Origin: Chitinophaga pinensis | GTDB lineage: Bacteria > Bacteroidota > Bacteroidia > CAMBQF01 | NCBI GenBank assembly: GCA_945869825.1 | Contig: CAMBQF010000002.1 | Span: 1 to 60,047 of the forward strand | DNA length: 60,047 bases | Direction of reading: 5' to 3' | Part shown: piece by piece, positions 112 through 44,319 of the stretch | How positions within the stretch are numbered: the stretch's first letter is position 1 | Layout: each line of letters begins with the position of its first letter | The notes under the pieces: model-generated | Database searches by the model: none | What the model saw: only the letters and a program-made list of their open reading frames with translations | What the model was told of the DNA's origin: nothing | Made by a program: the position numbers and the translations under genes

Positions 112-666
112 ATGAAGACGATAGGAAAAAAAGTAAGCTACGAGCAAACACCTGAAAAGCTGCTTATAAACATAAACGGCAGGGGCACCAAAAAGCAGGT
201 AAACCTGGTGATACTTTGGCTGCTGTTGTGGACAATTTGCGGCACCGTGCTGGTAGTGGAACTGTTTGCCGACTACACCGGCCAACAAAAAATTGTACTG
301 GCAGTAATGGTGGCCTTTTGGTTGTATTTTGAATATGCGGTGTACTACATTTACCGCTGGCGCAAAGGCGGTATCGAGATTTTGAAGATTCAGGGCGATA
401 CGATGACCTACTCTCGCGAGATTAATGGTGTGGGCAAGGTACAAACCTTTGATGCCAGGCAGGTGCGCAACCTTAAAATGGTTGACTATGAAGACAGCGA
501 TTTTCAAAGGGCGTATTATAAATCGTGGTACAGTATAGGGGGCGAGATGGTGCAGTTTACCATTAACGGCCGCGAGCATCGCGTGGCTATGCAAATAGAA
601 GAGGATGATGCTAAAAAGCTGCTGAAGCTTATTGATAAGGCGTTGCCGGAAATCAGTAGTCAGTAG
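112..666 (+). CDS. hypothetical membrane protein (two predicted TM helices plus a soluble C-terminal domain)
   Basis: 184-aa ORF with hydrophobic stretches LVILWLLLWTICGTVLVVELF and IVLAVMVAFWLYFEYAVYYIY. No family recognised. Confidence 0.6.
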   Translation: MKTIGKKVSYEQTPEKLLININGRGTKKQVNLVILWLLLWTICGTVLVVELFADYTGQQKIVLAVMVAFWLYFEYAVYYIYRWRKGGIEILKIQGDTMTYSREINGVGKVQTFDARQVRNLKMVDYEDSDFQRAYYKSWYSIGGEMVQFTINGREHRVAMQIEEDDAKKLLKLIDKALPEISSQ

Positions 667-688
667 TCGGTTGGCATTGGGCACTAAG
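654..688 (+). repeat. five-unit heptanucleotide array CAGTAGT CAGTAGT CGGTTGG CATTGGG CACTAAG
   Basis: Exact period 7: C at position 1 in all five units, T at position 4 in four of five. It spans the TAG stop (664-666) of the upstream gene and ends at ATG 689. Confidence 0.7.
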
Positions 689-3429: not shown

Positions 3430-5124
3430 ATGAAAACATCTAATCGCTTTTTCACCTTGTTTTTATTGCTGTTAACAGCAATTACTTTACAGGCGCAGGT
3501 ACCCGCAGCCCCATCAAGATATGTGGTCTTTTTTAGAGATAAAAACAACTCACCCTACTCAATAAACAACCCCTCGCAATTTTTATCGCAAAGGGCGTTA
3601 GACCGACGTGCTCGCTACAACATAGCGTTAGATCAATATGATATCCCTGTAAACCCACAATATGTATCTGGCATAGCCAATACTGGAGCCGTAATACTTA
3701 ACAAATCAAAGTGGTTGAACTGTGTTACCATTTGGACACCCGATACTTCTATCCTATCTCAAATAACAGCACTGCCTTATGTGCAGGCTTTAGGGCCTGT
3801 AGCCCGCCGCAAAGCAGTAGATAAAAACCCTGTAATGGATTTTGCGCGCGACATAACGCCCAAAATCAGGAGTAAAAGCACCGCTAAAAGCGGCAACACT
3901 GCGCTTGATTATGGCTTGGGTGCCAACCAGATAACGATGTTTAACGGACAGGTTTTCCACCTGCTGGGCTTTATGGGGCAGGGAATGCAAATAGCCGTGT
4001 TGGATGCAGGTTTTTCTAACACCGACCAATTGGACATTTTTGATAGCCTGTATGTAAACAACCAAGTACTTGGCACAAAAGACTTTGTAAACCCTACAAA
4101 TACGGATGTTTACCAGTTTAACACCCACGGAACGTATGTACTATCTTGCATAGGAGGCAACCTGCCAGGTGTATTGGTAGGTACAGCACCAAAGGCAGGG
4201 TTTTGGCTATTGCGCACCGAAGAGGGCGCGAGCGAAAACCTTATTGAAGAATACAATTGGTCATCAGGCGCGGAATTTGCCGATAGTGTTGGGGCTGATG
4301 TTATCAACTCATCACTTGGCTACACCGAATTTGATGACACGCTGGTAAATCATGTGTATGCCGACCTTAACGGCGATAAAACCCCTATTACCCGTGCGGC
4401 AGATTTTGCAGCATCGCGCGGAATGCTGGTAGTAAACAGCGCAGGCAACTCGGGCACCAGCCCATGGTTCCATATTGGCGCCCCTGCCGATGCTGACAGT
4501 ATATTAACTATTGGTGCGGTAGACTCTACCCGCGCCTATGCCACCTTTAGCTCTAAAGGACCATCGGCAGATGGAAGGGTGAAGCCCAATGTATGCGCTC
4601 AGGGCCGTAATGCCTGGGTGGCCAACGTATCGGGCGGAATTATGAAAGGCAGCGGTACATCGTTCTCTTCACCTATCATGGCAGGTGCGGTAACGTGTTT
4701 TTGGCAAGCTTACCCAAGCAGCAACAATATGCAAATTATAGAGGCTGTGCAACGCAGCGCAAGCCAGTATAACAACCCCGATAGCCTTATGGGCTATGGT
4801 ATACCCAACTTTGCTACAGCGGGTCAGTTTTTAACAACATCGGTAGATAATATTGCCCTTGATAAAGATGAGATATTAAACATCTTCCCCAACCCGTTTT
4901 ACAGCACGTTTAACATTGTTTACCGCCCTGAAAAGAGCAAGACTATAGATGTTACCGTTACTGATATGGCGGGTAAAAAGGTATTCTCTAAAAACTACCC
5001 TGTAACACCGGGCGAACCTAACAGCATTGTTTTAACAGGCATGGAGAATAACCCAAAAGGCCAATATGTTGTTACGGTGAAAAGCGGTAAGCAGCGTATT
5101 TCTAAAACGTTGATGAAGGAGTAA
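3430..5124 (+). CDS. S8 (subtilisin-family) serine peptidase with a T9SS type A C-terminal sorting domain
   Basis: Catalytic triad contexts VLDAGF (Asp), HGTYVLS (His) and GTSFSSP (Ser). Signal peptide present. The C-terminal ~80 aa (ILNIFPNPFYSTFNIVY...GQYVVTVKSGKQRISKTLMKE) resemble Por_Secre_tail. ATG at 3430 lies one codon after the TTG at 3427. Confidence 0.88.
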   Translation: MKTSNRFFTLFLLLLTAITLQAQVPAAPSRYVVFFRDKNNSPYSINNPSQFLSQRALDRRARYNIALDQYDIPVNPQYVSGIANTGAVILNKSKWLNCVTIWTPDTSILSQITALPYVQALGPVARRKAVDKNPVMDFARDITPKIRSKSTAKSGNTALDYGLGANQITMFNGQVFHLLGFMGQGMQIAVLDAGFSNTDQLDIFDSLYVNNQVLGTKDFVNPTNTDVYQFNTHGTYVLSCIGGNLPGVLVGTAPKAGFWLLRTEEGASENLIEEYNWSSGAEFADSVGADVINSSLGYTEFDDTLVNHVYADLNGDKTPITRAADFAASRGMLVVNSAGNSGTSPWFHIGAPADADSILTIGAVDSTRAYATFSSKGPSADGRVKPNVCAQGRNAWVANVSGGIMKGSGTSFSSPIMAGAVTCFWQAYPSSNNMQIIEAVQRSASQYNNPDSLMGYGIPNFATAGQFLTTSVDNIALDKDEILNIFPNPFYSTFNIVYRPEKSKTIDVTVTDMAGKKVFSKNYPVTPGEPNSIVLTGMENNPKGQYVVTVKSGKQRISKTLMKE

Positions 5125-5130: not shown

Positions 5131-5165
5131 CAGTTGGCAGTTCGCAGTTGGTTGTTCATAGTTAG
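5131..5165 (+). repeat. five-unit heptanucleotide array CAGTTGG CAGTTCG CAGTTGG TTGTTCA TAGTTAG
   Basis: A GTT core recurs with period 7. Starts 6 nt after the S8 peptidase stop. Confidence 0.8.
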
Positions 5166-7210: not shown

Positions 7211-7774
7211 CTAGTTAAGCGAAGGGTTCTCTGGGAAGTTGCCCCAGATGGCGTATTGTGTTTCGCTCTCGCGAATAAGTTTCCCCCACAGATCTTCAGT
7301 ATCTTCCTTTATTAAACCTTTTGGGGTATCGGCAATAAGCCAGGAGCTATGGCCAATCTCGTTATCAAGTTGGCCTTTTTCCCAACCTGAGTAGCCTGCA
7401 AAAAAGCGGACATTTTCGGGTGTTACTTTACCGGCCAAAATAAGGGCTTTCAGCTTATCAAAGTCTCCGCCCCAGTAAAGGTCTTTAGTAATGCGGTGGC
7501 TACCTTCTATCGCTTTGCCCAGGTTGTGGATAAAGTATAGCATATCGTTTTGCACGGGGCCGCCAGAATACAGCATGGCATCAAACTCCGGAAAATCTGG
7601 AATGACATCGTTAATGCTGATATTTAATGGTTTATTGATAACAAAGCCCATAGAGCCTTTGTCGTTATGTTCGGGAAGCAGCACCACGGCGCGCTTAAAA
7701 TAGTAATCTACCAAAAAGGGTTCTGATATAAGAAGAGAACCTGGCTTTACACTACTAACGATTTTAGTTTTCAT
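7211..7774 (-). CDS. YqgE/AlgH family protein (UPF0301)
   Basis: LISEPFLVDYYFKRAVVLLPEHNDKGSMGFVINKP and GGPV...YSGW are typical of the family. The start is taken at MKTKIV; the ORF track extends 11 codons further. Confidence 0.8.
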   Translation of the reverse strand: MKTKIVSSVKPGSLLISEPFLVDYYFKRAVVLLPEHNDKGSMGFVINKPLNISINDVIPDFPEFDAMLYSGGPVQNDMLYFIHNLGKAIEGSHRITKDLYWGGDFDKLKALILAGKVTPENVRFFAGYSGWEKGQLDNEIGHSSWLIADTPKGLIKEDTEDLWGKLIRESETQYAIWGNFPENPSLN

Positions 7775-9952: not shown

Positions 9953-10333
9953 ATGCTAAAATCCCTCATCATATCATCCATCCTACTCACCACAATCTGC
10001 TCTGCACAGGTACTAAACCTAGCCCCGATTTTAGGCCATTGGGAGAATAGCGACGATAAGCGTAACCATATTTACATTACTGAGAAGTACATTATAGAAA
10101 AATATGATGAACAGTTAATTGATACTTTTAGCTATTCTATATCATCTGCTATTTGCGATACCGCATACCTTAAACCGGGTGTTGATACTACTGCCCTGTT
10201 TTTAGTGGAAACCAATATCCACACTGGCGACCAATACTGCTTTGAGATATTAAATGGTGGCGAAAACAGCCACCTATCATTTAGATACGTTTTTAACGGC
10301 TACCTCAATGAATTTGATAGAAAAAAAGAATAA
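9953..10333 (+). CDS. small secreted hypothetical protein
   Basis: Signal peptide MLKSLIISSILLTTICSAQ. 126 aa, AT-rich. Confidence 0.5.
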   Translation: MLKSLIISSILLTTICSAQVLNLAPILGHWENSDDKRNHIYITEKYIIEKYDEQLIDTFSYSISSAICDTAYLKPGVDTTALFLVETNIHTGDQYCFEILNGGENSHLSFRYVFNGYLNEFDRKKE

Positions 10334-10334: not shown

Positions 10335-10369
10335 CAACTCTGTACGCTAAACGTTTAACGCTCTACGCT
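10335..10369 (-). repeat. five-unit heptanucleotide array AGCGTAG AGCGTTA AACGTTT AGCGTAC AGAGTTG (minus strand)
   Basis: Period-7 AGCGT core. The first unit contains the TAG stop of the cysteine desulfurase gene. Confidence 0.8.
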
Positions 10370-11508
10370 ACAACAGGCTTCAAAATATCCTTCAGTACAT
10401 CAACAGCATAGTCAATGTCTTGCAGTTGGGTGCTTTTGCAGAAAGAGAAACGTACTGCAGGGCGTTCCATATCGGTACCCAGAGCACGTAGCACATGCGA
10501 ACCTATATCGCTGCCCGATGAGCATGCCGAGCCACCCGAAGCAGCTACGCCATTAATATCAAGGTTAAAGAGCAGCATTTCGCCTATATCGGTCTTTGGT
10601 AAAGATACGTTTAATACTGTGTACAACGACTTGTCCATATCTCCGCTTTCGCCGTTAAACTCTACTCCAGGAAACTCGTTTTGCAATCGCCCTATCATGT
10701 AGCCTTTCAGCTCGCGTATGTGGGCGGCTTCTTTTTCCATGTCGCGGTGGGCAATTTCAAAAGCTTTGCCAAGGCCAACAATGCCGTACACATTCTCGGT
10801 ACCTCCGCGCATGTTACGCTCCTGGGCACCACCGGTAATAAAAGGTGGTATTTTAACATCGGCACTCATGTATAAAAAGCCAACGCCTTTAGGGCCATGA
10901 AATTTATGCGCGGCACACGATGCAAAATGAACTTTAACAGCTTGAAAGTCTAATGGGTAATGGCACATGGTCTGTACCGTATCGGTATGGAAAACGGCTT
11001 TGTATTGTTCGCAAAGCGCCGATACTCTTTCAATGGGTAAAAGGTTACCAATCTCGTTGTTGGCTTGCATTAGCGATACTAAGGTTTGGCCATCGTATCC
11101 GGCAAGCAGTTCTTCTAAATGGGCTAGGTCTACATTGCCTTTGGCATCAACATTTACAAGACTTAGTTTAATCTTGCCCAGCTTAGCTAAATCCTCAAGG
11201 GTGTGTAGCACAGCGTGGTGTTCTAAGGGCGAGGTTATGGCGTGTTTAATGCCCATAAACTCGGTACTACATCGCAGGGCCATGTTGTTGGCCTCCGTTC
11301 CGCCCGATGTGAATATTATCTCCGACGGCGATACATTCAGAAGCTTGGCTATCGTTTTGCGTGATTGCTCTATGGCCACCCTAACCTCAGACCCAAATTG
11401 GTGGGTTGATGATGGGTTGCCAAACTTCTCTGTCATGTACGGTAGCATAGCCTCTACCACCTCTTTGTCTAAGGCAGTAGTAGCAGCATTGTCAAGATAA
11501 ACTCTCAT
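10363..11508 (-). CDS. cysteine desulfurase (NifS/IscS family, class V aminotransferase)
   Basis: PLP-lysine context AAHKFHGPKGVG and catalytic Cys loop ASGGSACSSG. 381 aa. Confidence 0.88.
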   Translation of the reverse strand: MRVYLDNAATTALDKEVVEAMLPYMTEKFGNPSSTHQFGSEVRVAIEQSRKTIAKLLNVSPSEIIFTSGGTEANNMALRCSTEFMGIKHAITSPLEHHAVLHTLEDLAKLGKIKLSLVNVDAKGNVDLAHLEELLAGYDGQTLVSLMQANNEIGNLLPIERVSALCEQYKAVFHTDTVQTMCHYPLDFQAVKVHFASCAAHKFHGPKGVGFLYMSADVKIPPFITGGAQERNMRGGTENVYGIVGLGKAFEIAHRDMEKEAAHIRELKGYMIGRLQNEFPGVEFNGESGDMDKSLYTVLNVSLPKTDIGEMLLFNLDINGVAASGGSACSSGSDIGSHVLRALGTDMERPAVRFSFCKSTQLQDIDYAVDVLKDILKPVVA

Positions 11509-11665: not shown

Positions 11666-14600
11666 TTAGTTAAGTACTATGCGTTTGGTTATTACACCAT
11701 TGTTAGTTCGTATGCTGTATAAGTAAACACCGCGATCTAAGTTTTCAAAGTTATACTCTTTGGTGTATTTACCGGTGTAGCTTGGCAACGCCTCGCTTTG
11801 TACCACACGTCCGGTAACATCAGCAAGCGTAATGCTTACGTTTTGTTTAGACGGTATTTCGAATGTAACAGTAATATTACCTTCGGTTGGGTTGGGGTAC
11901 AGGTTGAAAGACGATACAACAGGCTGCTCGCCAACACCAAGCTTCATTACAGTAACAGGGATAGTGATGCTATCAGTACCGCAAAGGTTGGTTACTACCA
12001 GTGTTACCTGGTAAGTGCCATCTTCAGCATAGGTGTGTACAGGGTTAGGCTCTGTTGAGTTGGGGTTACCATCGCCAAATATCCACAAGTAGCTTTGGCC
12101 ATTGTCAGATAAGTTGGTAAAGTTAGCGGTTAAGCTAAAGGTGTTAAATGTGAACGATGCGTTAGGTTCTTGAATAACAAGAACTGAAATAGTATCGCTT
12201 GATGAACAACCTGAAGAGTCGGTAACAACTACCCAGTAGTTTTGAGATGTTGAAGCACTGATGATTTGTGTATTAACACCGGTGTTCCATGCATAATCAA
12301 AGTAATCAGGGCCTGCATCTAACAATACCGAACCACCAAAGCAGAAGCTTGTTGAGCCGTTAGCGGTAATATCAGCAACAGGACCGTTGTTAATGAACAC
12401 ATCTTGCGAGAATGTAGCAGGACATACGCCATTAGTAGTGTAAGTAATGGTGCTAACACCTTGCTGGCTGGCCAACAGGTTGATATTACCATTTACTGTA
12501 CTTATTGACAAATTGTTAGATCCGCTGAATACCCCACCAAGGTTACCTGTAATGGTAGGTGTTGGTGTTAAGCTTGATGATTGGCAATAAGTATACAATG
12601 GGTAAGCAAATGCTGCATCATCAGCCTGGGTAATGGTTACGCTTGTAGTAGTTGAACCTGGGCAAGCACCACCTACAGTGTAGGTAACGGTAAATGTTCC
12701 TGTTGAGCTGTTGCCAAGGTCAATCTCGCCGGTAAGGGCGTTAATTGCTAAACCGTTAGAGCCTGAGAACGAACCACCAAAGTCGCCTGTAATGTTAGGC
12801 TGTGGGTTGGTTAGGTTGTTACAGTATTGGCTTGATGAGTAGTTAAAGCCTGCATTGGCACCGTTAGTAATAGTAACGCTGAATGTTTGGCTTGCAGAGC
12901 AAATGCCATTAGTAGTATACGTAATAGTATAAGTACCTGCGGTGCTCGCACCTAAGTCAATTGAGCCAGTAGCAGGGTTAATGCTTAAGCCTGAAGGAGA
13001 AGCGCTAAATGTACCACCTGTTGTACCAGTAATAGTAGGTACAGGGGCTGTTACACCTGTTTGGCAGAATGAAGACTGGGTATAGAAGAATGTAGCATTA
13101 TCAAGTGGGGTAACGGTAACCAAAGTTTGTGTGCTACCTGCGCAGGTATTGCCATCAGTATAAGTATAGGTAATAATGTTCTGACCTAAGTTAGCGTTGG
13201 AAGGTGTAAACGTGTTGCTTACCACACCCGCTCCGCTAAATGTACCGCCGCTTGGGTTGCCTGTTAAGTTTACAGGGGCATCGTTTACACAGTAGCTGCT
13301 GCTTAAGCCTGTAATTTGAACAGATGGTGTTGCGTTAACAGTAACCTGTTGTGTGCTTGTTCCGCTGCAACCGTTGTTTGTAGTGTACAGGTAGGTAACA
13401 GTATGCGTACCGGGGCCTGCAAACAATGGGTCGAAGTTGTTACCTGTAACACCGTTTCCGCTGAATATGCCACCAGCAGGTGTGCCTGTTAAGGCAACAG
13501 GGGATGCATCTTCACAGTACTCAGCACCTAAACCGGTAAACGATACCACCGGGGCAGGGTTTACGGTTACAAACTGAGAGTATGAGTTAGAACACAAGTT
13601 ACCATCAGTAAAGGTATAGGTAACAGTAAATGTACCTTCACCAGCTTGCGATGGGCTGAACACGTTACCAGATACTCCGGTGCCGGTAAATGAACCTCCT
13701 TGTGGGAATGATGTCATTTGAACATCAGCAGATGACGTACAGTAAGCATTTAGTAAACCTGCAAAACCAACTGTTGGAAGAGGATTAACAACTACTTGTA
13801 TTGATGCTGTACCAGTACAGCCGCCTGTTGTTACAGAATAGGTAATGGTATGTACACCTGCACCCGCTGCTCCTGGGTTAAAAGTGGTTCCAGACACACC
13901 TGGGCCGCTGAATGTGCCACCTGCTGGTGTTACGTTTAGAGTAACGGGGTTAGCGCTTACACAGTAGCTTGATGCTAAGCCGGAAATTACAGGGCTTGGG
14001 GCTGGGTTTACAACTACTGTTTGGGTAGCTGTGTTGCCACAACCATTGCCATCGCTGTAAGCATAGGTTATAGTATGTGTACCAGGGCCTGAAATAGCAG
14101 GGAAGAATGTGTTTCCAGATACGCCCGGGCCACTAAATGTACCACCGCTTGGTGTACCGGTAAATGTTACCGATGCATCGTTAGAGCAGTAGGTATTAGC
14201 TAAACCAGTGATAGATACAGTAGGTTGTGCATACACTTGTACCTGTTGGGTAGTAGTGCCTGTACAACCGTTAATATCAGAGAAGGTGTAAGTAATATCA
14301 TATACACCAACACCTGCAGCTGCAGGGTCAAAGCTGTTGCCTGTTATACCGGTTCCGCTAAATGTACCACCCGATGGCAATCCGCTAAGTGTTTGTACAC
14401 CAGCCGCGATGCAATATTGAGCAGCAAGGTTGGTAATAGCCACCTGTGGGAAATCGAAAACAGTTACCGTTTGACTAACACTGTTTGAACAAGAGTTGCC
14501 ATCAGTATAGCTATAAGTAATTACATGTGTACCAACACCCGCAGTTGATGGGGTAAAGTTAGTACCCGATACACCCTGGCCTGTGAAGGTACCACCCGCA

Positions 14601-17600
14601 GGGGCACCAACCAATGGCTGGGCAGTAACGTTACCAATACAATAACTAGAGTTTAAGCCGCTAAATGCTACAACAGGCAGTGCGTTAACAACAACACCTT
14701 GTGTAGTTGTGTTAGAGCATCCGTTACCATCTGCATATGAGTAGGTAATGTTAAATGTACCTGCGCCTGCAAGTGCCGGGGTAAATGTGTTACCCGATAT
14801 GCCTGCACCGCTTAATGTACCACCTACCGGTAGGCCGCCAATGTTAACTGCAGCAGCATCTATACAATATGATGGAGCTAAACCTGTAATGCTTAATGAA
14901 GGTAGAGGGTTAACTGCTACTGTTTGTGTAACAGAGTTTGAACAGCCGTTACCATCGCTATAAGTGTAGGTAATGGTATGCGAGCCCTGTCCGGCAGTAG
15001 ATGGGTCAAACGTATTGCCACTAACACCTATACCGCTAAATGTACCACCTGCAGGTATACCTGTTAACGGAACGTTAGTAACGCTAACACAATAAGCAGA
15101 TTGTAAGTTGCTAATAGCTACTGTAGGTAATGTATTAACTACAACTGTTTGGGTAGTAGTGTTAGAGCAGCTGTTACCATCGGTATACGAGTAGGTAATA
15201 ACATGCGAACCAACACCAGCAGTTGCAGGGTCAAATGTATTGCCAGATATACCTGAACCGCTAAAAGTACCTGCAACAGGCAAACCTGTTAAAGTAACAG
15301 GGCTTGCACTTATACAATACTCAGGGTTTAGGCCGCTAAAGCTAACGGTTGGTAAATCATTTATTACAACAAGTTGAGATGTAGAGTTTGTACAGCTCAA
15401 ACCATCAGTATAAGTATAGGTTACCAGTGTTTGATTACCGTTTACTATTGATGGGAATAGCTGGTTGTTAGATACACCAATACCTGTAAATGAACCGCCC
15501 GGAGGGGTTGCAATCAGGTTGATTGGGCCAGCATCTTCACAATAATCGCTACCTAAGTTAGATATTGCGACTACCGGAAGGTCGTTAACTGTTACGTTTT
15601 GTGTAGTTGAGTTAGAACAGCTGTTACCGTCAGTGTAAGAATAGGTAATGGTGAAAGTACCTACACCCGCATCGGCAGGGTCAAAAGTAGAACCGGTAAT
15701 GCCTGTTCCACTAAATGTACCACCGTTAGGTATTCCTGTTAAAGCCACCGGAGCAGTGCTTAAGCAATATGCATTAGCAAGGCCGCTGATACCAACAACA
15801 GGCAAAGCATTAACTACCGTGCTTTGGCTTGCAGTGTTAGTACAGCCGTTACCATCGGTATAGCTGTAGTTTATAGTTATAAAACCTACACCAGCATTAG
15901 AAGGTATAAAGTCTGAACCCGAAACACCTGGACCTGATAATACACCACCCGTTGCAGGCAGTATATTTAAAGCTACCGGGGTAGAGTTATCTGTACAGTA
16001 TGATGTACCTAAACCGCTTAAAGTAACAAATGGCAAACCGTATATAGTTACTGTTTGGGTAGCTATGGCAGAACATGCGTTACCATCGGTATAAGAGTAG
16101 GTAATAACATGGTCGCCGGCAACAGTTAATGTTGGGCTAAATGTGTTACCAATTACACCCAAGCCACTAAATGTGCCACCGGCAGGCGAACCTGCAAGGG
16201 TAACAGTAGAGGCACTGATACAGTATTCTGGGTCTAAACCACTAAAACTAACTACCGGTGCAGGCAATAATATTATCGACTGGGTAGTAGATGTTGCGCA
16301 GGCGCCTGTTGTTGTGTAGGTTACTGTAAACGGAATATTTATTGTTGAGTTGCTTAGGTCAATTAAACCTGTTGAAGGGTTGATATCTAAACCTGCAGGG
16401 GTTGCGCTAAACACACCACCTGTTAAGCCTGTAATGGTAGGCGTTGGGTTAGCACCGTTTATACATATGGTTGGGTCTGCAAAGGCAAAGGCCGAGTTGT
16501 CTGCACCTGTAATAGATACCGTTTGGCTTTGCGATGCCGCACATATTCCTGTTGTAGTGTAAGTAACAGTGTATGAGCCAATAGTGCTGGCTAATAAATC
16601 AATCTCGCCTGTTGCAGGGTCTAGCGATAAACCTGCCGGGCTTGATGTAAATGTACCGCCTGATATACCCGTAATGTTAGCTACAGGGTTTGTACCTGCG
16701 TTTTGGCAGTAGCTGACCTGAGAATAACTGAATGATGGGTTATCTGCACCTGTAATAGACACAGAGAACGTAGCTGAACTTGAACATGCACCGTTGGTTG
16801 TATAAGTTACAGTGTATGGCCCGCCAGGGGTTGAGGCTGTTAGGTTAATCTCGCCTGTTGCATTATTAACAAATAAACCTGACGATGCGGTAAACGTGCC
16901 ACCTGCTAAACCTGTAATGGTTGGCAATGGGTTTGTACCATTAGTACAGTAGCTACTTGTGCCATAGCTAAATGATGCATCATCTGTTTGGGTAATATTA
17001 ATAGTAAAAGTTGATTGTGATGGGCAAGGACCTGCACTTGTATAAGTTACCGTGTATGGGCCACCTGCTGCTGATGCTGCAAGGTCTATAACACCTGTTG
17101 TTGGATCTATAGATAAACCTGCTGTTGCAGTAAATGAACCACCACCAACTGAAATAATAGGCGTTGGATCAACTCCGTTTTTACAATAAGTGCTTTGCGC
17201 GTAGCTAAAGGTTGATACGCCTGCTACCGTAATGCTTACCGATTGGGTAGCTGTATTAGGGCAAGTACCGTTGGTTGTGTAAGTTACCGTATATGGACCA
17301 CCCACTGTTGATGCTGATACATCAATAACACCCGTAGATGCATCAACCACTAAACCTGCAGTCGCAGAGAACGAACCACCTGCTAAACCTGTAATAGTAG
17401 GTGTAGCATCAGCACCGTTAACACAATAGCTTGATGCGCTGTAGCTAAACGATGCATCGTCTGGCACATCAATAGTAACTGTTTGCGTACTTGTAGTTGC
17501 ACAGGCTCCACCGGTTGAAAGGTAAGATACTGCATAGGTATTAGCTGTTGAAGCTGACACATCTATAGCACCTGTACCCGGGTTGATTGACAAGCCCGAT

Positions 17601-19693
17601 GGTGTAGCGCTAAACGTACCACCCAATACACTTACAGAAGGTGTTGGGTCGCCGGCGTTTTGGCAATACGATGCGCTAGCATAGCTAAATGTAGAGTTGC
17701 CTGTAGCGTTAATTGTTACCGTTTGGGTAGATGATGATGGGCATGGACCACCAAACGCATACGTAATAGTATAAGTATTAGGTGTAGATGCCAACAAATC
17801 AATAATACCTGTAGTTGGGTCTATTGATAAGCCTGAAGGGCTTGCGCTAAAACCACCACCGCTTTCAGTAACAGATGGTGTTGGGTCAGCGTCTTGCTGG
17901 CAATATGCTAAAGCACCATAGCTAAATGTTGATACAAATGTAGGGTTAACCGTTACAGCAATACCTGTTGATTGTGCAGTTGTACCGCAGCAAGCAGTAA
18001 CACCTTCAACAGTGTAGGTACCAGAAGTAGTAGCTGTATAAGTTGATGCGTTAGCACCACCTATTGGGCTGCCGTTATTATACCACTGAAAGCTTGTGTA
18101 GTTAGGCGTCGGGGTATTTGTTACTGATAATAATACACTGCCCCCCGCACAGAATGTGGTGGTAGAACCGTTTGTTATAGTTGGTGTCGTAAAGTCTGCA
18201 TTGATAGTAATGAAACCACGGTATGTGGTAGAACATGCTGTTACGTCTTTAACACCTTGTGTAGGGTATGTAGTTGTACCTGTTCCACAGTTACTTAATG
18301 TAATTGTTTTATTTGTACAGTTTTCTTCTGTTACTGTTAATGATGATTGGGCAGAAAGAGCCAACGTACTGTTGTTTGCAAGCGATGTACCGCTAACAAC
18401 GTTAACTGTTGTTGCCGCACCTGCCGCACCTGCACCACCAGTCCCACCAGCACCACCAGAGCCACCAGAGCCACCATTACCACCACGGCCAACGTCGCAG
18501 TCGCCACCGTTACCCGAGCCTAAACCGCCCGTGCCACCGGCACCACCTGAACCACCTGAGCCACCAGAACCGCCTGTACCACCGGCACCTGCATTACCTA
18601 AGTTATATTGATTGTCGACCAACTGGCCGTTTGCTCCATTACTTACTATAAATACACAATAGGTTGATCCGCCACCGGTACCACCAGAGCCACCAACACC
18701 ACCGCAGCCTCCGCCGCCACCGCCTGCGCCTGAGCTACCTGCACCATCGTTACAAGAGCCCCCAACTTCGGCACCGCCGCCACCGCCGCCACCGCCGCCG
18801 GTTCCGTTAGTACCATTACCACCAGAGGTGCCTGCACCACCCGGAACAAAGAAACCACTTACTATACTGCCAGATGCACCAACTGAACCGTTGCCTCCGT
18901 TAGAACCGTTAGAACCGTTTGCACCATTGCCACCTGCACCAGGGTTGGTACAAGAGAAAGTGCTACAATCGTTGCCGCCGCCGCCGCCGCCATTGCCGCC
19001 GCCACAACCACCGGTTGCGCCTGAGCCTGCACTGTTGCCGTTGCCTGCATATGCGTTATTACCACCTGCTCCACCAGGGCAGCATGATGATGAGCCTCCG
19101 CTACCGCCAGCCCTGAATAAACTTTCGTTATCAGAGTCGCCTGTACCACCGTTTCCTCCGTTTCCGCCGTTTGCACCGCTTGTTCCGTTAGACCCGTTAA
19201 CACCCGAACCAGCGTTACCAGAGTTGATAACACAACGTTGCACCAAGTAATTGCTACAGCCTGTAATGTACACGCCATAATTGCTTACCTGTGTGTTTGC
19301 CGATGCGTTTTGTACGGTTATAGTAAGGTCTTGTAAACGCCAGCCCGAAATGCCGCTGGCTACAATGGCCCTAACATACGAACCGCTACCACTGGGGTTG
19401 TTCGATGCATTGGCTTGGGTACGGCTAATAACCGTTAACCCCGCTGTACTGGTTTTAGTAGTGAAACCTGCATTCCATCCACCCTCCAATACAACGTTAG
19501 ACGACATGGCAAGCTCGTTAGTAATAACGTACGTGCCTTGCGCCATGCGGATAATACCGCCACCGGCACTGTTGGCCGCCGTTAACGCAGTTTGCAACTG
19601 CGCCGTGTTTGATACCTGCCAAATACTACACGTTTGTGCATTACTTAGCATGGTTGCAAACACCATAGTAAATAGTAGTAATAACTTCTTCAT
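11666..19693 (-). CDS. giant (2675 aa) T9SS-secreted repeat protein (adhesin-like)
   Basis: Domain order: signal peptide MKKLLLLFTMVFATMLSNAQ, a beta-helix-like N domain, then a ~270-aa Gly/Asn/Ser/Cys-rich region. Next come 7 copies of an ~80-aa two-Cys module (FSY..YC...P.PtitG..GGtFsa..GL.id..TG.IdlsaSt.g.YtVtYtt.G.C), 14 copies of a ~75-aa module (GL...YC.....v.LtG.P.GGtFSG.GvsGn.F.P..aG.G.H.ItYsYtDgNgCsN), and 3 more ~80-aa modules. It ends with a PKD-like domain (FGDGNPNS...HTYAEDGTYQVTLVV) and a type A CTD (LYPNPTEGNITVTF...GVYLYSIRTNNGVITKRIVLN). Confidence 0.9.
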   Translation of the reverse strand: MKKLLLLFTMVFATMLSNAQTCSIWQVSNTAQLQTALTAANSAGGGIIRMAQGTYVITNELAMSSNVVLEGGWNAGFTTKTSTAGLTVISRTQANASNNPSGSGSYVRAIVASGISGWRLQDLTITVQNASANTQVSNYGVYITGCSNYLVQRCVINSGNAGSGVNGSNGTSGANGGNGGNGGTGDSDNESLFRAGGSGGSSSCCPGGAGGNNAYAGNGNSAGSGATGGCGGGNGGGGGGNDCSTFSCTNPGAGGNGANGSNGSNGGNGSVGASGSIVSGFFVPGGAGTSGGNGTNGTGGGGGGGGGAEVGGSCNDGAGSSGAGGGGGGCGGVGGSGGTGGGSTYCVFIVSNGANGQLVDNQYNLGNAGAGGTGGSGGSGGSGGAGGTGGLGSGNGGDCDVGRGGNGGSGGSGGAGGTGGAGAAGAATTVNVVSGTSLANNSTLALSAQSSLTVTEENCTNKTITLSNCGTGTTTYPTQGVKDVTACSTTYRGFITINADFTTPTITNGSTTTFCAGGSVLLSVTNTPTPNYTSFQWYNNGSPIGGANASTYTATTSGTYTVEGVTACCGTTAQSTGIAVTVNPTFVSTFSYGALAYCQQDADPTPSVTESGGGFSASPSGLSIDPTTGIIDLLASTPNTYTITYAFGGPCPSSSTQTVTINATGNSTFSYASASYCQNAGDPTPSVSVLGGTFSATPSGLSINPGTGAIDVSASTANTYAVSYLSTGGACATTSTQTVTIDVPDDASFSYSASSYCVNGADATPTITGLAGGSFSATAGLVVDASTGVIDVSASTVGGPYTVTYTTNGTCPNTATQSVSITVAGVSTFSYAQSTYCKNGVDPTPIISVGGGSFTATAGLSIDPTTGVIDLAASAAGGPYTVTYTSAGPCPSQSTFTINITQTDDASFSYGTSSYCTNGTNPLPTITGLAGGTFTASSGLFVNNATGEINLTASTPGGPYTVTYTTNGACSSSATFSVSITGADNPSFSYSQVSYCQNAGTNPVANITGISGGTFTSSPAGLSLDPATGEIDLLASTIGSYTVTYTTTGICAASQSQTVSITGADNSAFAFADPTICINGANPTPTITGLTGGVFSATPAGLDINPSTGLIDLSNSTINIPFTVTYTTTGACATSTTQSIILLPAPVVSFSGLDPEYCISASTVTLAGSPAGGTFSGLGVIGNTFSPTLTVAGDHVITYSYTDGNACSAIATQTVTIYGLPFVTLSGLGTSYCTDNSTPVALNILPATGGVLSGPGVSGSDFIPSNAGVGFITINYSYTDGNGCTNTASQSTVVNALPVVGISGLANAYCLSTAPVALTGIPNGGTFSGTGITGSTFDPADAGVGTFTITYSYTDGNSCSNSTTQNVTVNDLPVVAISNLGSDYCEDAGPINLIATPPGGSFTGIGVSNNQLFPSIVNGNQTLVTYTYTDGLSCTNSTSQLVVINDLPTVSFSGLNPEYCISASPVTLTGLPVAGTFSGSGISGNTFDPATAGVGSHVITYSYTDGNSCSNTTTQTVVVNTLPTVAISNLQSAYCVSVTNVPLTGIPAGGTFSGIGVSGNTFDPSTAGQGSHTITYTYSDGNGCSNSVTQTVAVNPLPSLSITGLAPSYCIDAAAVNIGGLPVGGTLSGAGISGNTFTPALAGAGTFNITYSYADGNGCSNTTTQGVVVNALPVVAFSGLNSSYCIGNVTAQPLVGAPAGGTFTGQGVSGTNFTPSTAGVGTHVITYSYTDGNSCSNSVSQTVTVFDFPQVAITNLAAQYCIAAGVQTLSGLPSGGTFSGTGITGNSFDPAAAGVGVYDITYTFSDINGCTGTTTQQVQVYAQPTVSITGLANTYCSNDASVTFTGTPSGGTFSGPGVSGNTFFPAISGPGTHTITYAYSDGNGCGNTATQTVVVNPAPSPVISGLASSYCVSANPVTLNVTPAGGTFSGPGVSGTTFNPGAAGAGVHTITYSVTTGGCTGTASIQVVVNPLPTVGFAGLLNAYCTSSADVQMTSFPQGGSFTGTGVSGNVFSPSQAGEGTFTVTYTFTDGNLCSNSYSQFVTVNPAPVVSFTGLGAEYCEDASPVALTGTPAGGIFSGNGVTGNNFDPLFAGPGTHTVTYLYTTNNGCSGTSTQQVTVNATPSVQITGLSSSYCVNDAPVNLTGNPSGGTFSGAGVVSNTFTPSNANLGQNIITYTYTDGNTCAGSTQTLVTVTPLDNATFFYTQSSFCQTGVTAPVPTITGTTGGTFSASPSGLSINPATGSIDLGASTAGTYTITYTTNGICSASQTFSVTITNGANAGFNYSSSQYCNNLTNPQPNITGDFGGSFSGSNGLAINALTGEIDLGNSSTGTFTVTYTVGGACPGSTTTSVTITQADDAAFAYPLYTYCQSSSLTPTPTITGNLGGVFSGSNNLSISTVNGNINLLASQQGVSTITYTTNGVCPATFSQDVFINNGPVADITANGSTSFCFGGSVLLDAGPDYFDYAWNTGVNTQIISASTSQNYWVVVTDSSGCSSSDTISVLVIQEPNASFTFNTFSLTANFTNLSDNGQSYLWIFGDGNPNSTEPNPVHTYAEDGTYQVTLVVTNLCGTDSITIPVTVMKLGVGEQPVVSSFNLYPNPTEGNITVTFEIPSKQNVSITLADVTGRVVQSEALPSYTGKYTKEYNFENLDRGVYLYSIRTNNGVITKRIVLN
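12380..13099 (-). repeat. intragenic tandem array, 3 x ~240 nt (second block of the ~80-aa module)
   Basis: Units start NATFFYTQSSFC, NAGFNYSSSQYC and DAAFAYPLYTYC. Confidence 0.75.
13100..16255 (-). repeat. intragenic tandem array, 14 x ~225 nt (~75-aa two-Cys module)
   Basis: Fourteen consecutive units with conserved GL..YC, GGTFSG.G, ITYsYtDgNgCsN; 3156 nt / 14. Confidence 0.85.
16256..17941 (-). repeat. intragenic tandem array, 7 x ~240 nt (~80-aa two-Cys module)
   Basis: Seven consecutive units, each starting xxFSY..YC and ending Q.V.I. Boundaries were mapped from the translated sequence. Confidence 0.8.
18415..19222 (-). other. Gly/Asn/Ser/Cys-rich low-complexity coding region of giant protein 1
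   Basis: Runs of GGN/GSG/GNG codons (e.g. GGNGGNGGTG, GGGGGGGGGAEVGG, GGSGGSGGSGGAGGTGG) punctuated by Cys. These generate Pro-rich ORFs on the opposite strand. Confidence 0.85.
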
Positions 19694-24716: not shown

Positions 24717-27700
24717 CTATTCTAACCCCTGCATACGGTTTATAAAATCTTTCTTCTTACGGTCGGTACCAGCATTAAAGCGGTACGGTTTTTCTCCGTT
24801 TTTAGTGTCCAGTGCGCGTTTTTCCGGATCAATGCCTTTTATCACATCGTTAAACGCAGCCGAACCTGAAAGAGCCTGCATCTCGCCAGCTGAGTAATAA
24901 AAATAGTACCAGTTGCTTCCGTCGGGCTCTATGTAAATATGGAACACATCGCCACCGCGTTTTTTAACCAGCTCTACATAGCCTTTTATTTTCTTATTAA
25001 CTGGTTCGCCACCAATGTAAGCAATACCTAAATCGCCTTTAGATATGTATGAGCGCGATGTTGAATTCCACTCAAAGGTTATATCACTAAACACAATGGT
25101 TTTCTTAAACTCATCAGGCATTTTCTTCATTGCACCTCCACTACCCACTTCGCTCACAGCACGGTCGGCATCTTTCTTATCCTTTACAATATATGGTATT
25201 GCCTTTTTAAACTTCTCCGTATTCTGGCTTGCCGGCGGAATAGAACCATAGGTAATCAATAGGTTAGTCATCTGTTTCCAGCAATCAGGCGGAAGGAAGA
25301 AGTCCATCGTCATCACCACATCAAACGTAGTTTTCTCGGTAGCCATACTATTATCAACCGTACCCACAACAGCCGTTGTAACACGGCCATAATCTGTACC
25401 AAGATTCATTACCCCTTCGCCATTCACATCGCAGGTTTTGTTGTTTAACGATATGTATTGCCCTGGTATGTTGTTATTACCCAGTTTCTCTTTTGAGCCT
25501 ATCTGGTATTCACCAGATGCAACATCGTAAGTTAAAAAGCCCATGGCAGAGATGATATCCACATCGGCTGCGCGGAATTTTTTAGAGATAACAGCAGGGT
25601 AAATATGGGTAGAGTCTTTTACCAGTATTAAACCGGCAGAGAGCTTATCGCCATCCAGCGACATTGGCATGGTATCAACCGGAATGTACACTTCTTTCGG
25701 ATCGATAATAGTTGCAAACTTCAACCAGTATTTAGCCAGTTTATCGCAGGCATGGCGCATACGCGCGCCACCGGTAAAGGTCATGTTAGGGTTGCTGGCC
25801 GTAAAGTTAACTGCTCCTTTAAAATCAAATGCTGGGCTAATAGTAAACTTGGCATCCTCGCCAATTTCGCCATAGCCTTTGGTATTCCCTGCAGGGTCTA
25901 CACCAATGCTGCTAATGGCAATGGGTTGCTTTTTACCTGCTTCGTCAAGGTAATCAATCATGCCAGAGCCTGAGTAACCCTTGCGACTAAAAATGGAAGC
26001 TGTAGCATTGTATATATTGTAGAATTTAGAATCACGGTTGGCATCAACTTTAGCATTTTTCAAATCTTCCATACGGCCGCTTTTCTCAATACGCACATTA
26101 CCATCGCCTGGAAAAACGCGTGCATCGGCAACATCAACATAGGGAACTTTGCTACAGTATATTGTTTTCTCTTTGAGATTGAAACGAGCCTGCGCAGCAA
26201 TAAATGTCAACGAGTCCTGCCCAGGGTCGGTAGACACGAACTTGGCACCCAAAAGATCTACATCTTTAATTGTACTATTCAAATCCACCTCATCTTTATC
26301 CATGTTCCATCGCATCTCATCCATATAACATACATACTTGTTGATGGGAAAATCGACATATGAATCTTTAGAATTTGATTTGAATTTACCTTCGCGGCTG
26401 TTCATACTCACATCGGCCTTAACGTTGCCAGTTGAAAATGCCACCTCTTTATCTTCTTTGTTAGTTGCGCCGTCCTTTAGTGATGTTAACCTAAAGTCGA
26501 GCGAGTCTGATTTAAAATCGTCTTTCTTAAACTTAAAGTCTTTTGATTCCAGCTCAGCCGATGCTAAGTCCATAAGGCCTTTGCCACGGACACCCGCCTT
26601 ACCCACCTGTATGGTACCCTTTAGTTTCGATTCTTCTTTGTACATCAACAGCGGCTTGGTGGTGTTCGATACAAAGAAGGAATTTTCTTTTTTAGTATCC
26701 CAATGTATTTTAACATCCTGTGCTTTAATATCGGGAAACTCCGCACCGTCTTTAACCGCCTTTAGCATGTCAAACTTACGGGCCTGGGCGTTCATAGAGT
26801 CGGGGTAGAAAATAAAGTTGCTCGACTCTGCAGTAGATGCCAGATAAGTAAGCTTACCTGCACCACGCAAACCATTATTGCTTAGCATTAAGGTATCGCT
26901 AAAGGTTGCTTTATTTTTATAAATAGGTAAACCCGCAGATGCTGTCATTTGCATAAAGCCCAGCGAAAGGTCGGGCTGTACACGTATCTTCTCGCGCATA
27001 TCTTCAAATATGCCTGCTGATGAAAATGTGCCATCCAGCGCAAGAGCACTGGGGTCAAAATTATCCAGCGAGTCGATAGTAAATGGGTCTAGCTTAAAGT
27101 AGAAATTATCGCGCTTGTAAACACCTTGCTCAATGTTTTTCCTGTCGTAATATACAAACGAGTTTTTGGCGCTGTTAAATATGGGGTATTGGGTAAAAGG
27201 CTTAAGGCCAGATTTATTGTAGGGTTGGTCAATAAGCAAATCGCCCGTAATGTTTTCTATCTGCGATTTTAAGCGAACCGTTTTTACGTTGCCATATTCG
27301 TCTTTGTCGCCCTGGGGTATGCGTATTTTAGTAGAGTCAACGTTTTTAAGCTCAAGCTTAAACTTATCATACAAAAACTCAAACTCTTTTCCATATAACT
27401 CAAAGTTACCGGCCATAATTAAGCCAGAGAAATTAAAGTCGCGGTTTTTCTTAACCAATACCTCGCGATTTTGCGGAAAGATTACCACACGTTGCGAATC
27501 CGACAAAAATATTTTTTGCACACCGTAAATCTTCAAATCGTAATTAAGCAGGTTGATGGTGGCGTTGCGCCCTTTGCTACGGGTGGTATCTCGTAAGTCA
27601 GCTGATGATAAAAACTGTATTACATCATAATCTGTTTTGCCTGCTTTGGAGTTTATATAATCCAGCGTTTTGTCTTTTATATAGCCTCTTTCCGCTTCAA

Positions 27701-29198: not shown

Positions 29199-29275
29199 AG
29201 AGCCAATTGTAGGAGGTGTAAAGTTAACGGATTAGCCCGATAATAGGTTTAGCGAGTTATTAACTACTTTTTTGG

Positions 29276-29310
29276 GGATAGGTTGTAGGGGTTAGGGTAT
29301 AGGTATAGAG
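29276..29310 (-). repeat. five-unit heptanucleotide array (plus strand GGATAGG TTGTAGG GGTTAGG GTATAGG TATAGAG)
   Basis: Period-7 TAGG core (TAGA in the last unit) and no C on the plus strand. Read on the minus strand it begins 10 nt after the stop of the 137-aa membrane protein gene. Confidence 0.8.
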
Positions 29311-29320: not shown

Positions 29321-29734
29321 TTACGTAATTTTAACTATCCTAATACCTTTATCTTTAAGAAAATTACAGATAAAGAAATATTCGCTACTCTTTCTTTCTA
29401 CAAACTTTATACTTTTAGTGTCTTTAAAAACAACAAACCTCCACCCTGTATCTTTGAAAGATATATCATTAATTTCTATCCTATCAATGTCATTATAGGA
29501 AGTAACCTCAACACGCCCAAAAATGTCCTTTTCTTCAAAATAATCATTGTAAAAACTAATGCTTTTAGCAATCCTGAATATGAGATAAGAATATAGAAGC
29601 AGCAAGACTATTGTAATTACCAATGCTTGCCAAATAAGCCATACTTTTAACAACAAGGCGCAACATATTATAAAAATCAGGAAACCAATTCCAATAGCAA
29701 TGTCTGATTTAATATGATGTATGCGCTTGCTCAC
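29321..29734 (-). CDS. small membrane protein (two TM helices plus a short C-terminal domain), AT-rich
   Basis: IAIGIGFLIFIICCALLL and ALVITIVLLLLYSYLIF are hydrophobic helices. Last gene of a 4-gene co-directional cluster. Confidence 0.55.
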   Translation of the reverse strand: MSKRIHHIKSDIAIGIGFLIFIICCALLLKVWLIWQALVITIVLLLLYSYLIFRIAKSISFYNDYFEEKDIFGRVEVTSYNDIDRIEINDISFKDTGWRFVVFKDTKSIKFVERKSSEYFFICNFLKDKGIRIVKIT

Positions 29735-36031: not shown

Positions 36032-36063
36032 GCGGGGAAAATACAAATTATATATACGCAGGC

Positions 36064-37674: not shown

Positions 37675-37678
37675 ATTG

Positions 37679-37686
37679 CAAATATA
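37679..37686 (-). promoter_or_regulatory. -7 promoter box TATATTTG, S41 peptidase gene
   Basis: Exact consensus match on the minus strand, 4 nt upstream of ATG 37674. Confidence 0.5.
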
Positions 37687-38086
37687 ACGGCATTTGTGAT
37701 GGGGCAAATTAAATTATTAAGCCAATGCCTGTTAAGTATTTAAACTGAGAAACGATATTTATGTTTTAATAAATTTCACCTAATCGCCTTACGCTTTGAA
37801 GGTGAGTATATCCTTCAACATGTGACTATTATCTACCAGAGTTATTAAGGGTTATAAGCTATTATGATAACTTTTGGGGCATTTAGAAATAAAGGAGCGC
37901 GGCTCTGTGTTAAAAACAATGGTGTTGGAGTTGCAAAAATGTGTTAGGAATGGAAGTGGCAGTCCCGAATGAAATGAGAGCTATAACGGACAACCATGCC
38001 CAACCGATGAGGGAACGCACTAAAATAATACATATACTAAAAGGTTTAACTCTTTATAACTTAGGCAAAAGGCCGATAACCATTGA

Positions 38087-38110
38087 TATCAGCATTACTA
38101 TCAGCATTAC
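38087..38110. repeat. exact 12-bp tandem duplication TATCAGCATTAC x2
   Basis: Read directly. Lies within the long AT-rich non-coding gap. Confidence 0.8.
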
Positions 38111-38342
38111 AATGAAGACCATATTATGGTGTTTTAAGATTAGTTGGTATTTACTTAGTATGCATATGATGCATAATTATTACAAAAAGTTACAGATAAT
38201 TGTGCATTTTTTCAAAAATATTTAAATATTGGTTTGGCTCCCTTACTGCAATAGTTTAATTAACTAAGAATACAGGAAAATGTTGAACGATTTACAATAT
38301 TGTTTTTTTTTATCCGTCAACCCTAACATAAAGCGATAAAAA

Positions 38343-38906: not shown

Positions 38907-38943
38907 TATTATTAAAACAAGACAAGTAAAAAATTATAAGGAT

Positions 38944-39321: not shown

Positions 39322-39346
39322 AGTAGATTTGTGATTAATAGGTTTT

Positions 39347-39379
39347 AAGCCGCGGTATAAGAGTATCGCGGCTTTTTTG
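39347..39379 (+). terminator. rho-independent terminator after the ECF sigma / small membrane protein pair
   Basis: AAGCCGCG-GTATAAGAGTAT-CGCGGCTT followed by TTTTGT. Confidence 0.75.
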
Positions 39380-39391
39380 TTTCTTTAAGGT

Positions 39392-39868: not shown

Positions 39869-39873
39869 ACTCC

Positions 39874-39881
39874 TATATTTG
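39874..39881 (+). promoter_or_regulatory. -7 promoter box TATATTTG, wecB
   Basis: Exact consensus match, 8 nt upstream of ATG 39890. Confidence 0.5.
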
Positions 39882-39889
39882 CAAGGCAT

Positions 39890-41050: not shown

Positions 41051-41071
41051 AAAACAATTTAATTTGCACAT

Positions 41072-41452: not shown

Positions 41453-41458
41453 ACCCGG

Positions 41459-42334: not shown

Positions 42335-42394
42335 CATATGACAATTAATATCTATCAGAATTGACTGTTGGATATTAGATATAATCTATCAGAT

Positions 42395-44182: not shown

Positions 44183-44194
44183 AGTAGTGCATTT

Positions 44195-44302: not shown

Positions 44303-44319
44303 AACAAAAGAACGTTACT

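Follow-up and report, generated by a model that had tools for sequence, protein, structure and literature searches.

The short tandemly repeated repetitive (STRR) sequences of heterocystous cyanobacteria (Calothrix, Anabaena) are non-coding tandem heptanucleotides that occur in several unit families per genome. The same description fits seven tracts in a stretch of DNA from an uncultured freshwater Bacteroidota bacterium (contig CAMBQF010000002.1 of the assembly GCA_945869825.1; 60,047 nucleotides (nt), hereafter the window), which encodes sorting domains of the type IX secretion system (T9SS) and for which the nearest relative with a name is ‘Sphingobacteriales bacterium JAD_PAG50586_3'. The cyanobacterial arrays are usually longer and more perfect than the arrays analyzed here and come from a different phylum. 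The exemplar of the seven tracts, at 5131–5165 on the plus strand, reads CAGTTGG CAGTTCG CAGTTGG TTGTTCA TAGTTAG. The most likely classification of the tracts is as heptanucleotide simple-sequence repeats, of the kind that includes STRR and long simple sequence repeats (LSSR), with most of them belonging to a single degenerate family with the unit YCRGTTN. The original prediction, which reported the letters of all seven tracts exactly, aptly likened them to the cyanobacterial STRR, but its statement that no equivalent had been described in Bacteroidota does not hold, given that repeats of TAACTGA and of other heptamers have been reported in five Bacteroidetes (MacGregor 2015, PMC4679880); every anatomical feature on which it relied has already been published for this kind of repeat, although not for this lineage.

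Heptanucleotides are the most abundant class of LSSR in many genomes, where they are intergenic, and polymerase slippage has been proposed as their source (Mrazek 2007, as cited in PMC4679880 and PMC4692102). As represented in these citing papers, the LSSR survey (Mrazek, Guo and Shah 2007) counted near-perfect repeats, whereas most of the arrays in the window are too degenerate for such a count; all three hallmarks of the LSSR and STRR kind, namely, an excess of period 7, non-coding location and whole-unit copy changes between strains, are nevertheless found here. The heptameric repeats of Xanthomonas, with the unit GGGAATC or (GGGANTN)n, and those of Nostoc PCC 7120, with the unit GGGGAYT, consist of heterogeneous units with conserved and free positions, have the modal count of about 4, are 89–93% intergenic and lie, on average, 28 nt from the upstream open reading frame (ORF) compared with 160 nt to the downstream ORF; they are rare between divergent genes, form inverted pairs, and recur in related species between the same pairs of genes, where their length and sequence vary (Rehm 2015, PMC4692102). 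The Xanthomonas units are rich in G-tracts and form G-quadruplexes in vitro, and no function has been found for the Xanthomonas repeats, despite an RNA sequencing (RNA-seq) analysis, or for those of Nostoc (Rehm 2015, PMC4692102). The TAACTGA direct repeats, which are present in Beggiatoaceae and cyanobacteria as well as in the five Bacteroidetes, are intergenic, predicted to be unstructured, exact and mostly ‘forward', located a few nt upstream of start codons in 2–6 (up to 43) copies, and accompanied in the same spacers by other heptamers, one set of which follows a stop codon directly, in the reverse orientation; a role in rearrangement was suggested, and binding of TAACTGA by a cold-shock-domain protein or ribosomal protein S1 was proposed (MacGregor 2015, PMC4679880).

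The arrays in the window differ from each of these. Unlike the Xanthomonas repeats, they do not contain four or more tracts of at least three guanines, the main unit being YCRGTTN and most of the arrays being incapable of forming a G-quadruplex, and unlike both the Xanthomonas and the Nostoc repeats, they reside in another phylum and comprise several unit families side by side. The complement of the YCRGTTN family includes TAACTGA, and the complementary heptamer TCAGTTA occurs verbatim, as single units, within the arrays that follow the yajQ gene. Strict membership in the TAACTGA family fails, however, because neither the window nor any other locus examined contains TCAGTTATCAGTTA, the exact tandem pair by which TAACTGA/TCAGTTA repeats are recognized. 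Furthermore, in contrast to the TAACTGA repeats, the units here are degenerate and the arrays starting at 654, 5131 and 44811 are in the reverse orientation, after stop codons; only the orthologs of the array starting at 29276 in two relatives (L100 and L101) and the arrays upstream of prfB are forward-like, yet these lie 22–77 nt from the start codon.

The non-randomness of the arrays is apparent from a scan of the window in which base i was compared with base i+p over 28 consecutive comparisons, with a cut-off of at least 18 matches. At period 7, six non-overlapping segments pass this cut-off, compared with the expectation of 0.53 and the maximum of 5 in 100 dinucleotide-preserving shuffles; these six are five of the strongest sites of the original prediction and a segment at 47764. 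Periods 4, 5, 8, 10, 11 and 13 yield no more than one segment each in the same scan, and periods 6, 9 and 12 are enriched solely within two giant repetitive coding genes; the only non-coding period that is enriched in the window is 7. The gene map, which was built from ORFs and Pfam, has 26 intergenic spacers that are 25 nt or longer and add up to 3.5 kb. Seven of these hold a period-7 run in which 14 or more of 21 comparisons match, compared with 0.28 (maximum 2) in the shuffles and 0–1 spacers for each of the other periods, so that about a quarter of the spacers in the window carry a heptamer array. Tandem Repeats Finder detects four of the seven tracts, at period 7 or 14. The excess extends well beyond the window: in 104 kb of relatives, there are 18 period-7 matches vs 0–2 for the remaining non-coding periods, and in 58 more distant Bacteroidota (891 kb in total), there are 23 specific period-7 arrays vs 4–11 for periods 5, 8, 10, 11 and 13, including perfect arrays of TTGGTCA (five copies), CAGAATT (four) and ACTAATC (five). 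Of the 48 arrays in 1.2 Mb of Bacteroidota loci, 35 are inside the 9% of the DNA that is called non-coding; among the 13 in DNA called coding, several reflect ORF over-calls.

All seven arrays lie in spacers, with at most about 13 nt of gene overlap, and six of them touch a real stop codon, whereas random placement of 35-nt segments in the spacers results in 23% adjacency (P = 8e-4 for at least six of seven). Thus, like the Xanthomonas and Nostoc repeats, the arrays are nearer to the upstream gene end, and only one of the seven is between divergent genes. The original count of six out of seven arrays at stop codons stands when real genes are considered, but the stop assigned to the 47769 array belongs to a spurious ORF, and the 45891 array touches the stop of the minus-strand gene rather than that of the plus-strand gene.

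Four of the arrays are in co-directional spacers. The 5131 array begins 6 nt past the stop codon of an S8 peptidase gene (5122–5124), and 88 nt separate its end from the start of a rhomboid gene (5253). The array at 654–688 (plus strand; CAGTAGT CAGTAGT CGGTTGG CATTGGG CACTAAG) covers the TAG stop codon (664–666) of the gene 112–666 and precedes a MORN-repeat gene; its copy in L098 is identical. The array at 44811–44845 (plus strand; (GT)AGTTC CCGGTTG ACAGTTG TCAGTTA TAAGTTG) begins 2 nt past the yajQ stop codon (44806–44808) and ends 14 nt before the start of a gene for a 139-amino acid (aa) protein (44860). The array at 29276–29310 (minus strand; in the sense of the minus-strand genes on either side, CTCTATA CCTATAC CCTAACC CCTACAA CCTATCC) begins 10 nt past the stop codon of the gene 29321–29734 and abuts the leader, about 75 nt long, of a gene encoding a 1493-aa protein (start at 29198).

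Two arrays, to which no strand is assigned, are in convergent spacers. The array at 10335–10369 (CAACTCT GTACGCT AAACGTT TAACGCT CTACGCT) occupies the whole 29-nt spacer between the gene 9953–10333 on the plus strand and the aminotransferase class V gene 10363–11508 on the minus strand, and overlaps the final 7 nt of the latter. The array at 45891–45925 (ATTCATT ATGCATT TTGAATT ATGCATT CTGAATT), the true period of which is 14 (Tandem Repeats Finder score 57), overlaps the stop codon of the minus-strand hydrolase gene 45924–46652. The only array in a divergent spacer, at 47769–47796 (minus strand; in the prfB sense, ATACGCT CCACGCT TAACGCT GTACGCT), is located 22 nt upstream of the true prfB start codon (ATG, 47746–47744), in an intergenic region, rather than at a stop codon; the plus-strand ORF 47520–47783 is spurious and antisense to prfB. 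The prfB gene itself (46655–47746, minus strand), which encodes release factor 2, contains a programmed +1 frameshift site of the classical type, CTT TGA C, at about 47690–47684. A decayed remnant that was absent from the original list, at 42361–42395 (no strand assigned; TTGACTG TTGGATA TTAGATA TAATCTA TCAGATT; 14 of 21 period-7 matches), lies in the convergent spacer between a bestrophin-like gene and an SSF transporter gene, where relatives carry clear arrays (L091 at 7404 and 7448, L060 at 8089, L092 at 4688). The two L091 arrays (7404–7436 and 7448–7475) are an inverted pair resembling those of Xanthomonas: both are of the GTT type, each is in the GTT sense for its own gene, and together they form an imperfect inverted repeat.

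The evolution of the arrays was traced in relatives at 97–99% (L062, L063, L067, L069), 86–92% (L001, L061, L064–L066, L068, L070, L099) and 76–80% (L060, L091, L092, L100, L101) nucleotide identity to the window. The diverged orthologs of the 654 and 29276 loci were reached by a homolog search, a simple look-up having returned identical strains only, and for the S8 peptidase spacer, the exact-protein look-up returned the same strain only, and a metagenome scan returned one close locus. Across the entire range from 99 to 76% identity, the arrays keep period 7 and their position in the spacer, while the sequence of the units drifts around a core of 2–3 nt, and this bears out the original prediction in the comparison of phase versus sequence that it had proposed: the phase is kept and the sequence is not.

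In the yajQ spacer, a heptamer array is present in all 15 related contigs examined, with spacer lengths of 49, 50, 51, 57, 58, 72 and 85 nt, the differences being multiples of 7 to within 1 nt, and with 4, 5, 6, about 10 or about 12 units depending on the strain, contrary to the constant unit count that had been surmised from the window. In every lineage, the end of the array is 14–17 nt from the next start codon. Within the clade of the window, the GTT columns are invariant in 19 distinct units, with the other four columns at 1.2–1.9 bits, whereas in L091, the invariant core of the array in the same spacer is TCAG rather than GTT. In the S8 peptidase spacer, L001 and L070 (90% identity) have GGGGCTA GGTTCTA GGGTTTA GGGGTTA in place of the 5131 array, the spacer being 28 nt (4 x 7) shorter than in the window; at this level of genome identity, the array is unalignable, whereas the 40 nt nearest to the start of the rhomboid gene are nearly identical. 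Similarly, the 10335 array has 3 substitutions in 35 nt compared with L069, which is 98.5% identical overall. At these two loci and the 29276 locus, the arrays change far more rapidly than the flanking DNA.

In L099, the 29276 array is shorter by one unit, and its orthologs read TACTGAT TACTTAT TACCGAC TACTGAA in L100 and AACTGAC CCCTGAC CTCTGGC CCCGGAT in L101, with the dinucleotide CT at every seventh column in all four lineages. In L100 and L101, the upstream neighbor is a different gene and the array still abuts the leader, filling the exact gap between whichever upstream stop codon is present and the conserved leader. The leader itself (29199–29272, minus strand) is nearly invariant in L099, L100 and L101 although the neighboring protein is only 55–61% identical; it occurs once in the window, matches no Rfam family, and may be a conserved leader or promoter element. 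Upstream of prfB, relatives carry arrays of drifting TAGCTTG-type units (L061 at 13831, L060 at 13424, L092 at 10038, L091 at 13239). The 45891 array is kept in L064, L067, L091 and L092 and, unlike the other arrays, is still recognizably similar at about 76% identity (L091 at 11373, L092 at 8179). Arrays are also lost: the MscS/PP2C spacer holds one in L060 and is only 9 nt long in L092. Identical units are found side by side (CAGTAGT, CAGTTAT, TAGCTTG and GTAATCA, two copies of each), which indicates recent duplications.

The claim that the core differs by locus was overstated. The degenerate unit YCRGTTN is common to the 654, 5131 and 44811 arrays and many arrays of relatives; several families do coexist, however, with the core ACGCT shared by the 10335 and 47769 arrays, in opposite orientations, and the core TAGG/CCTA shared by the 29276 array and the L001 allele. 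Moreover, strings of 16–25 nt are common to arrays of non-orthologous loci and different genomes, for example, CGGTTGTCAGTTNTCGGTTGCCAGT in L091 and L011; pairs that share such strings include the 5131 array and L091 7404, the 44811 array and L091 7448, and L091 7448 and L011 14501 (24 of 25 positions). The consensus that the units have in common accounts for at least part of this sharing.

The RNA folds bear out the prediction of unstructured tracts for six of the arrays (z from −1.65 to +1.1) but not for the 45891 array. Five of the arrays have folds between 0 and −7.8 kcal/mol, with z of at least −0.2, including 5131 (−4.2 kcal/mol, z = +0.8), 654 (z = +0.8) and 29276 (0 kcal/mol), and the 10335 array has z = +1.1 on the plus strand and −13.2 kcal/mol, z = −1.65, on the minus strand. 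The 45891 array is not only a direct repeat but also a palindrome, with ATGCAT and GAATTC-like units, and forms a hairpin of −16.7 kcal/mol (z = −4.7) over 45881–45935 on both strands. Overall, the description of the arrays as intergenic, stop-proximal and mostly unstructured is supported.

On balance, the most likely origin of the arrays is slippage that generates repeats confined to the unconstrained DNA after stop codons. Strand slippage or unequal exchange in 7-nt steps would make and remodel the arrays; units that retain a core of 2–5 nt could still mispair and be copied, so that the core would persist while the other positions drift. Purifying selection would keep the arrays out of the coding sequence and out of the promoter or leader of the next gene, and the arrays would accordingly gather in the sole DNA that is free, just past stop codons or throughout a convergent spacer. 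Such selection against arrays elsewhere would produce the stop-proximal picture without any termination function, and at most, the arrays might act as structure-free spacers the length of which may tune the neighboring genes. In favor of this origin are the restriction to period 7 and to intergenic DNA, the length polymorphism in 7-nt steps with signs of recent duplication, the rapid change of the arrays relative to their flanks, their variable presence and decay, their occurrence in all three types of spacer and in both orientations, the exact fit of the 29276 array between a stop codon and the leader, and the published repeats of like anatomy. That the core differs between orthologous arrays, GTT in the clade of the window and TCAG in L091, argues against a single sequence-specific reader.

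Several observations weigh against this slippage scenario. The arrays persist at fixed spacers (yajQ, prfB, the 1493-aa gene and the 3' end of the hydrolase gene) down to 76–80% identity, which is long for useless bacterial DNA. The invariance of the GTT columns over the 19 distinct units would have to reflect the copying-competent core postulated above, and the unit length of 7 nt is left unaccounted for by anything examined. The strings that are common to unrelated loci hint at sequence constraint or spread. Finally, there is a trend in orientation, with G+T-rich sense strands after stop codons and A+C-rich sense strands before start codons (about 5:2 vs 1:4 in a hand count, P about 0.1, not significant), and this trend, if real, would favor an RNA-level or transcription-coupled role.

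An unlikely alternative is that the arrays are maintained cis-elements that act at the RNA level. In the 3' untranslated region, between cistrons or in the 5' leader, they would offer an unstructured platform to a protein that binds single strands and covers about 7 nt, such as a cold-shock-domain protein or S1, and would thereby affect the stability or processing of the mRNA or help to initiate translation of the next gene independently of Shine-Dalgarno pairing. Cold-shock domains bind 6–7 nt, and Bacteroidota initiate translation without Shine-Dalgarno pairing. The retention of position and period down to 76–80% identity, the combination of invariant core columns with free flanking columns, the lack of structure in six of the seven arrays, the constant 14–17 nt between the yajQ array and the next start codon, the orientation trend, and the unit strings common to several loci and genomes all fit such a role. 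Many arrays present YAG or CTR triplets at 7-nt steps; proteins of the HutP/TRAP type, which are oligomeric RNA-binding proteins, bind phased triplets. However, the core varies not only by lineage at one locus (GTT vs TCAG) but also by locus (ACGCT, TAGG, CTA), both orientations are found even among co-directional spacers (5131 vs 29276), the number of copies ranges freely between 4 and about 12, arrays are lost from some spacers, and the equivalent Xanthomonas repeats yielded no function despite the RNA-seq analysis. More generally, the arrays occur in both orientations relative to genes, across co-directional (654, 5131, 29276, 44811), convergent (10335, 45891) and divergent (47769) spacers. 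The GC skew in the window follows gene orientation and gives no replication direction against which a bias toward one replication strand could be gauged.

A more specific version of the RNA-level role, which we consider doubtful, is that selection maintains the arrays as orientation-dependent RNA elements in the Shine-Dalgarno-less Bacteroidota, with a G+U-rich sense (YAG/GUU core) at 3' ends and an A+C-rich sense (CUR/AAC core, TAACTGA-like) in leaders. A protein that binds single strands and covers about 7 nt would read these elements in a 7-nt register, setting the 3'-end processing or stability of the mRNA, or translation initiation.

Action at the DNA level is less probable again. Under this explanation, the arrays would be a promoter spacing rheostat, with the copy number tuning transcription, or a non-B DNA or protein-binding site, or a recombination-prone site that favors gene gain and loss. 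In the hmw promoters of Haemophilus, changes in the copy number of heptanucleotide repeats tune transcription, and here, too, the copy number differs from strain to strain and the prfB and 29276 arrays are directly upstream of conserved promoter or leader sequence. Nevertheless, most of the arrays are situated next to a stop codon or in a convergent spacer, positions that have no promoter, and rapid switching is unlikely because the arrays are imperfect. A scan for sigma-70 promoters in the window returned matches at the shuffle expectation, this promoter type being the wrong one for the phylum. The inverted pair in L091 and the richness of the L001 allele and the 29276 array in G-tracts speak for a DNA-level role, but most arrays lack the four G3 tracts of a G-quadruplex; this structure was rejected given that the GTT, ACGCT and ATGCATT arrays have no G3 tracts at all and the 29276 array has only GG, GG, GGGG, GGG and GG. 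A role in rearrangement, as suggested by MacGregor (PMC4679880), would be compatible with the location of the 45891 array exactly where relatives gained or lost one or two genes, but this is only one of the seven arrays at an indel site, and no flanking inverted repeats or transposase were noted beside the arrays as a mobile-element footprint.

The 45891 site (45883–45924) is a hot spot of gene gain and loss between the terminator of a 143-aa gene and the hydrolase gene. In six relatives (L061–L063, L065, L066 and L068), it is occupied instead by extra minus-strand genes (for example, L062 10709–11124, L061 11571–11996 and L066 3627–4429), either one encoding 124–137 aa or two encoding 88 aa and 175 aa; the 175-aa product weakly matches DUF6036. 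L062 and the window are 97.2% identical to one side of this hot spot and 99.1% identical to the other (35181–45882 vs 45931–54438), which suggests a mosaic, recombinant ancestry among the strain of the window and its relatives.

The original prediction preferred a hairpin-free termination or processing signal at gene ends, which now appears highly improbable. Six of the seven arrays are indeed at a stop codon, and a sliding-window fold finds a hairpin of −18 kcal/mol or lower within 90 nt at none of the seven array-adjacent gene ends vs 7 of the 19 other ends; the hairpin terminators that had been listed are real and are quite unlike the arrays in appearance. The contrast between the two sets of gene ends is, however, not significant (Fisher P about 0.08), and 12 of the 19 ends without arrays likewise lack a strong hairpin, which does not support the idea that the arrays replace hairpins. 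The folds rule out a hairpin terminator for six arrays, and an intrinsic terminator with a G+C-rich stem and a U-tract is absent from all seven: the 45891 array folds but is A+U-rich, and none of the arrays is directly followed by a U-tract. The likeness to intrinsic terminators thus comes down to the position just past stop codons. Rfam 15 has no match above the gathering threshold anywhere in the window. The C-rich, G-free sense strand of the 29276 array resembles a loading site of Rho, but the C-rich, G-poor and unstructured character of a Rho utilization site is found in this array alone, and the 654, 5131 and 44811 arrays are the opposite, with G+U-rich sense strands (60–71% G+T in the DNA), such that the composition is inconsistent among the arrays. 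Furthermore, the 47769 array is upstream of prfB, in a divergent promoter region rather than at a gene end; the 44811 array ends 14 nt before the next start codon, leaving no room for a new promoter; the 45891 array comes after a canonical hairpin and itself folds; and there is no uniform orientation to the gene that would be terminated. A related idea, that the arrays provide a ‘backstop' of stop codons in three frames, was rejected as well, because TAG, which recurs in phase in L001 and L066, is lacking in the alleles that the window has at these loci. Chance similarity or an assembly artifact is practically negligible as an explanation: although the individual tracts score only modestly, the 11- to 25-fold excess over shuffles is specific to period 7, and the same arrays are present in independent assemblies (Logan, JGI, ENA, NCBI).

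Three related metagenome-assembled genomes contain octamer arrays, AATTCAAC/AATTCAAT, at orthologous sites (L014 at 5495, L020 at 5512, L021 at 5540), and about 4.5 kb from these, heptamer arrays with related yet different units, GTCATTT, TTTTGCA and TTGGTCA (L014 at 920, L020 at 996, L021 at 1031); TTGGTCA, the unit of the L021 array, we take to be the STRR2 unit of cyanobacteria. The giant genes of the window are 11666–19693 (minus strand, 2675 aa), 24717–29198 (minus strand, 1493 aa) and 49411–57234 (plus strand, 2607 aa), and the 2675-aa and 2607-aa genes contain coding repeats of period 9/27 and 6/12 (18.4–19.2 kb and 49.6 kb). The product of the 2607-aa gene is probably a T9SS cargo because its ortholog in L062 bears Gly_rich_2, GBD_T9SS_assoc and Por_Secre_tail domains.

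Few repeats in bacterial intergenic DNA are as common and as poorly understood as those with heptanucleotide units, and this lineage is a dense case. In practical terms, heptamer arrays should not be annotated as terminators, and they inflate spurious ORF calls and break assemblies. The ladder of relatives from 99% to 76% identity sharpens the question of whether such arrays are long-tolerated, self-perpetuating repeats or whether selection acts on the period-7 spacing of a tiny core. Should the arrays prove to be orientation-dependent RNA elements, this would provide a function for the STRR, TAACTGA and Xanthomonas heptanucleotide repeats, which have been unexplained since 1990.

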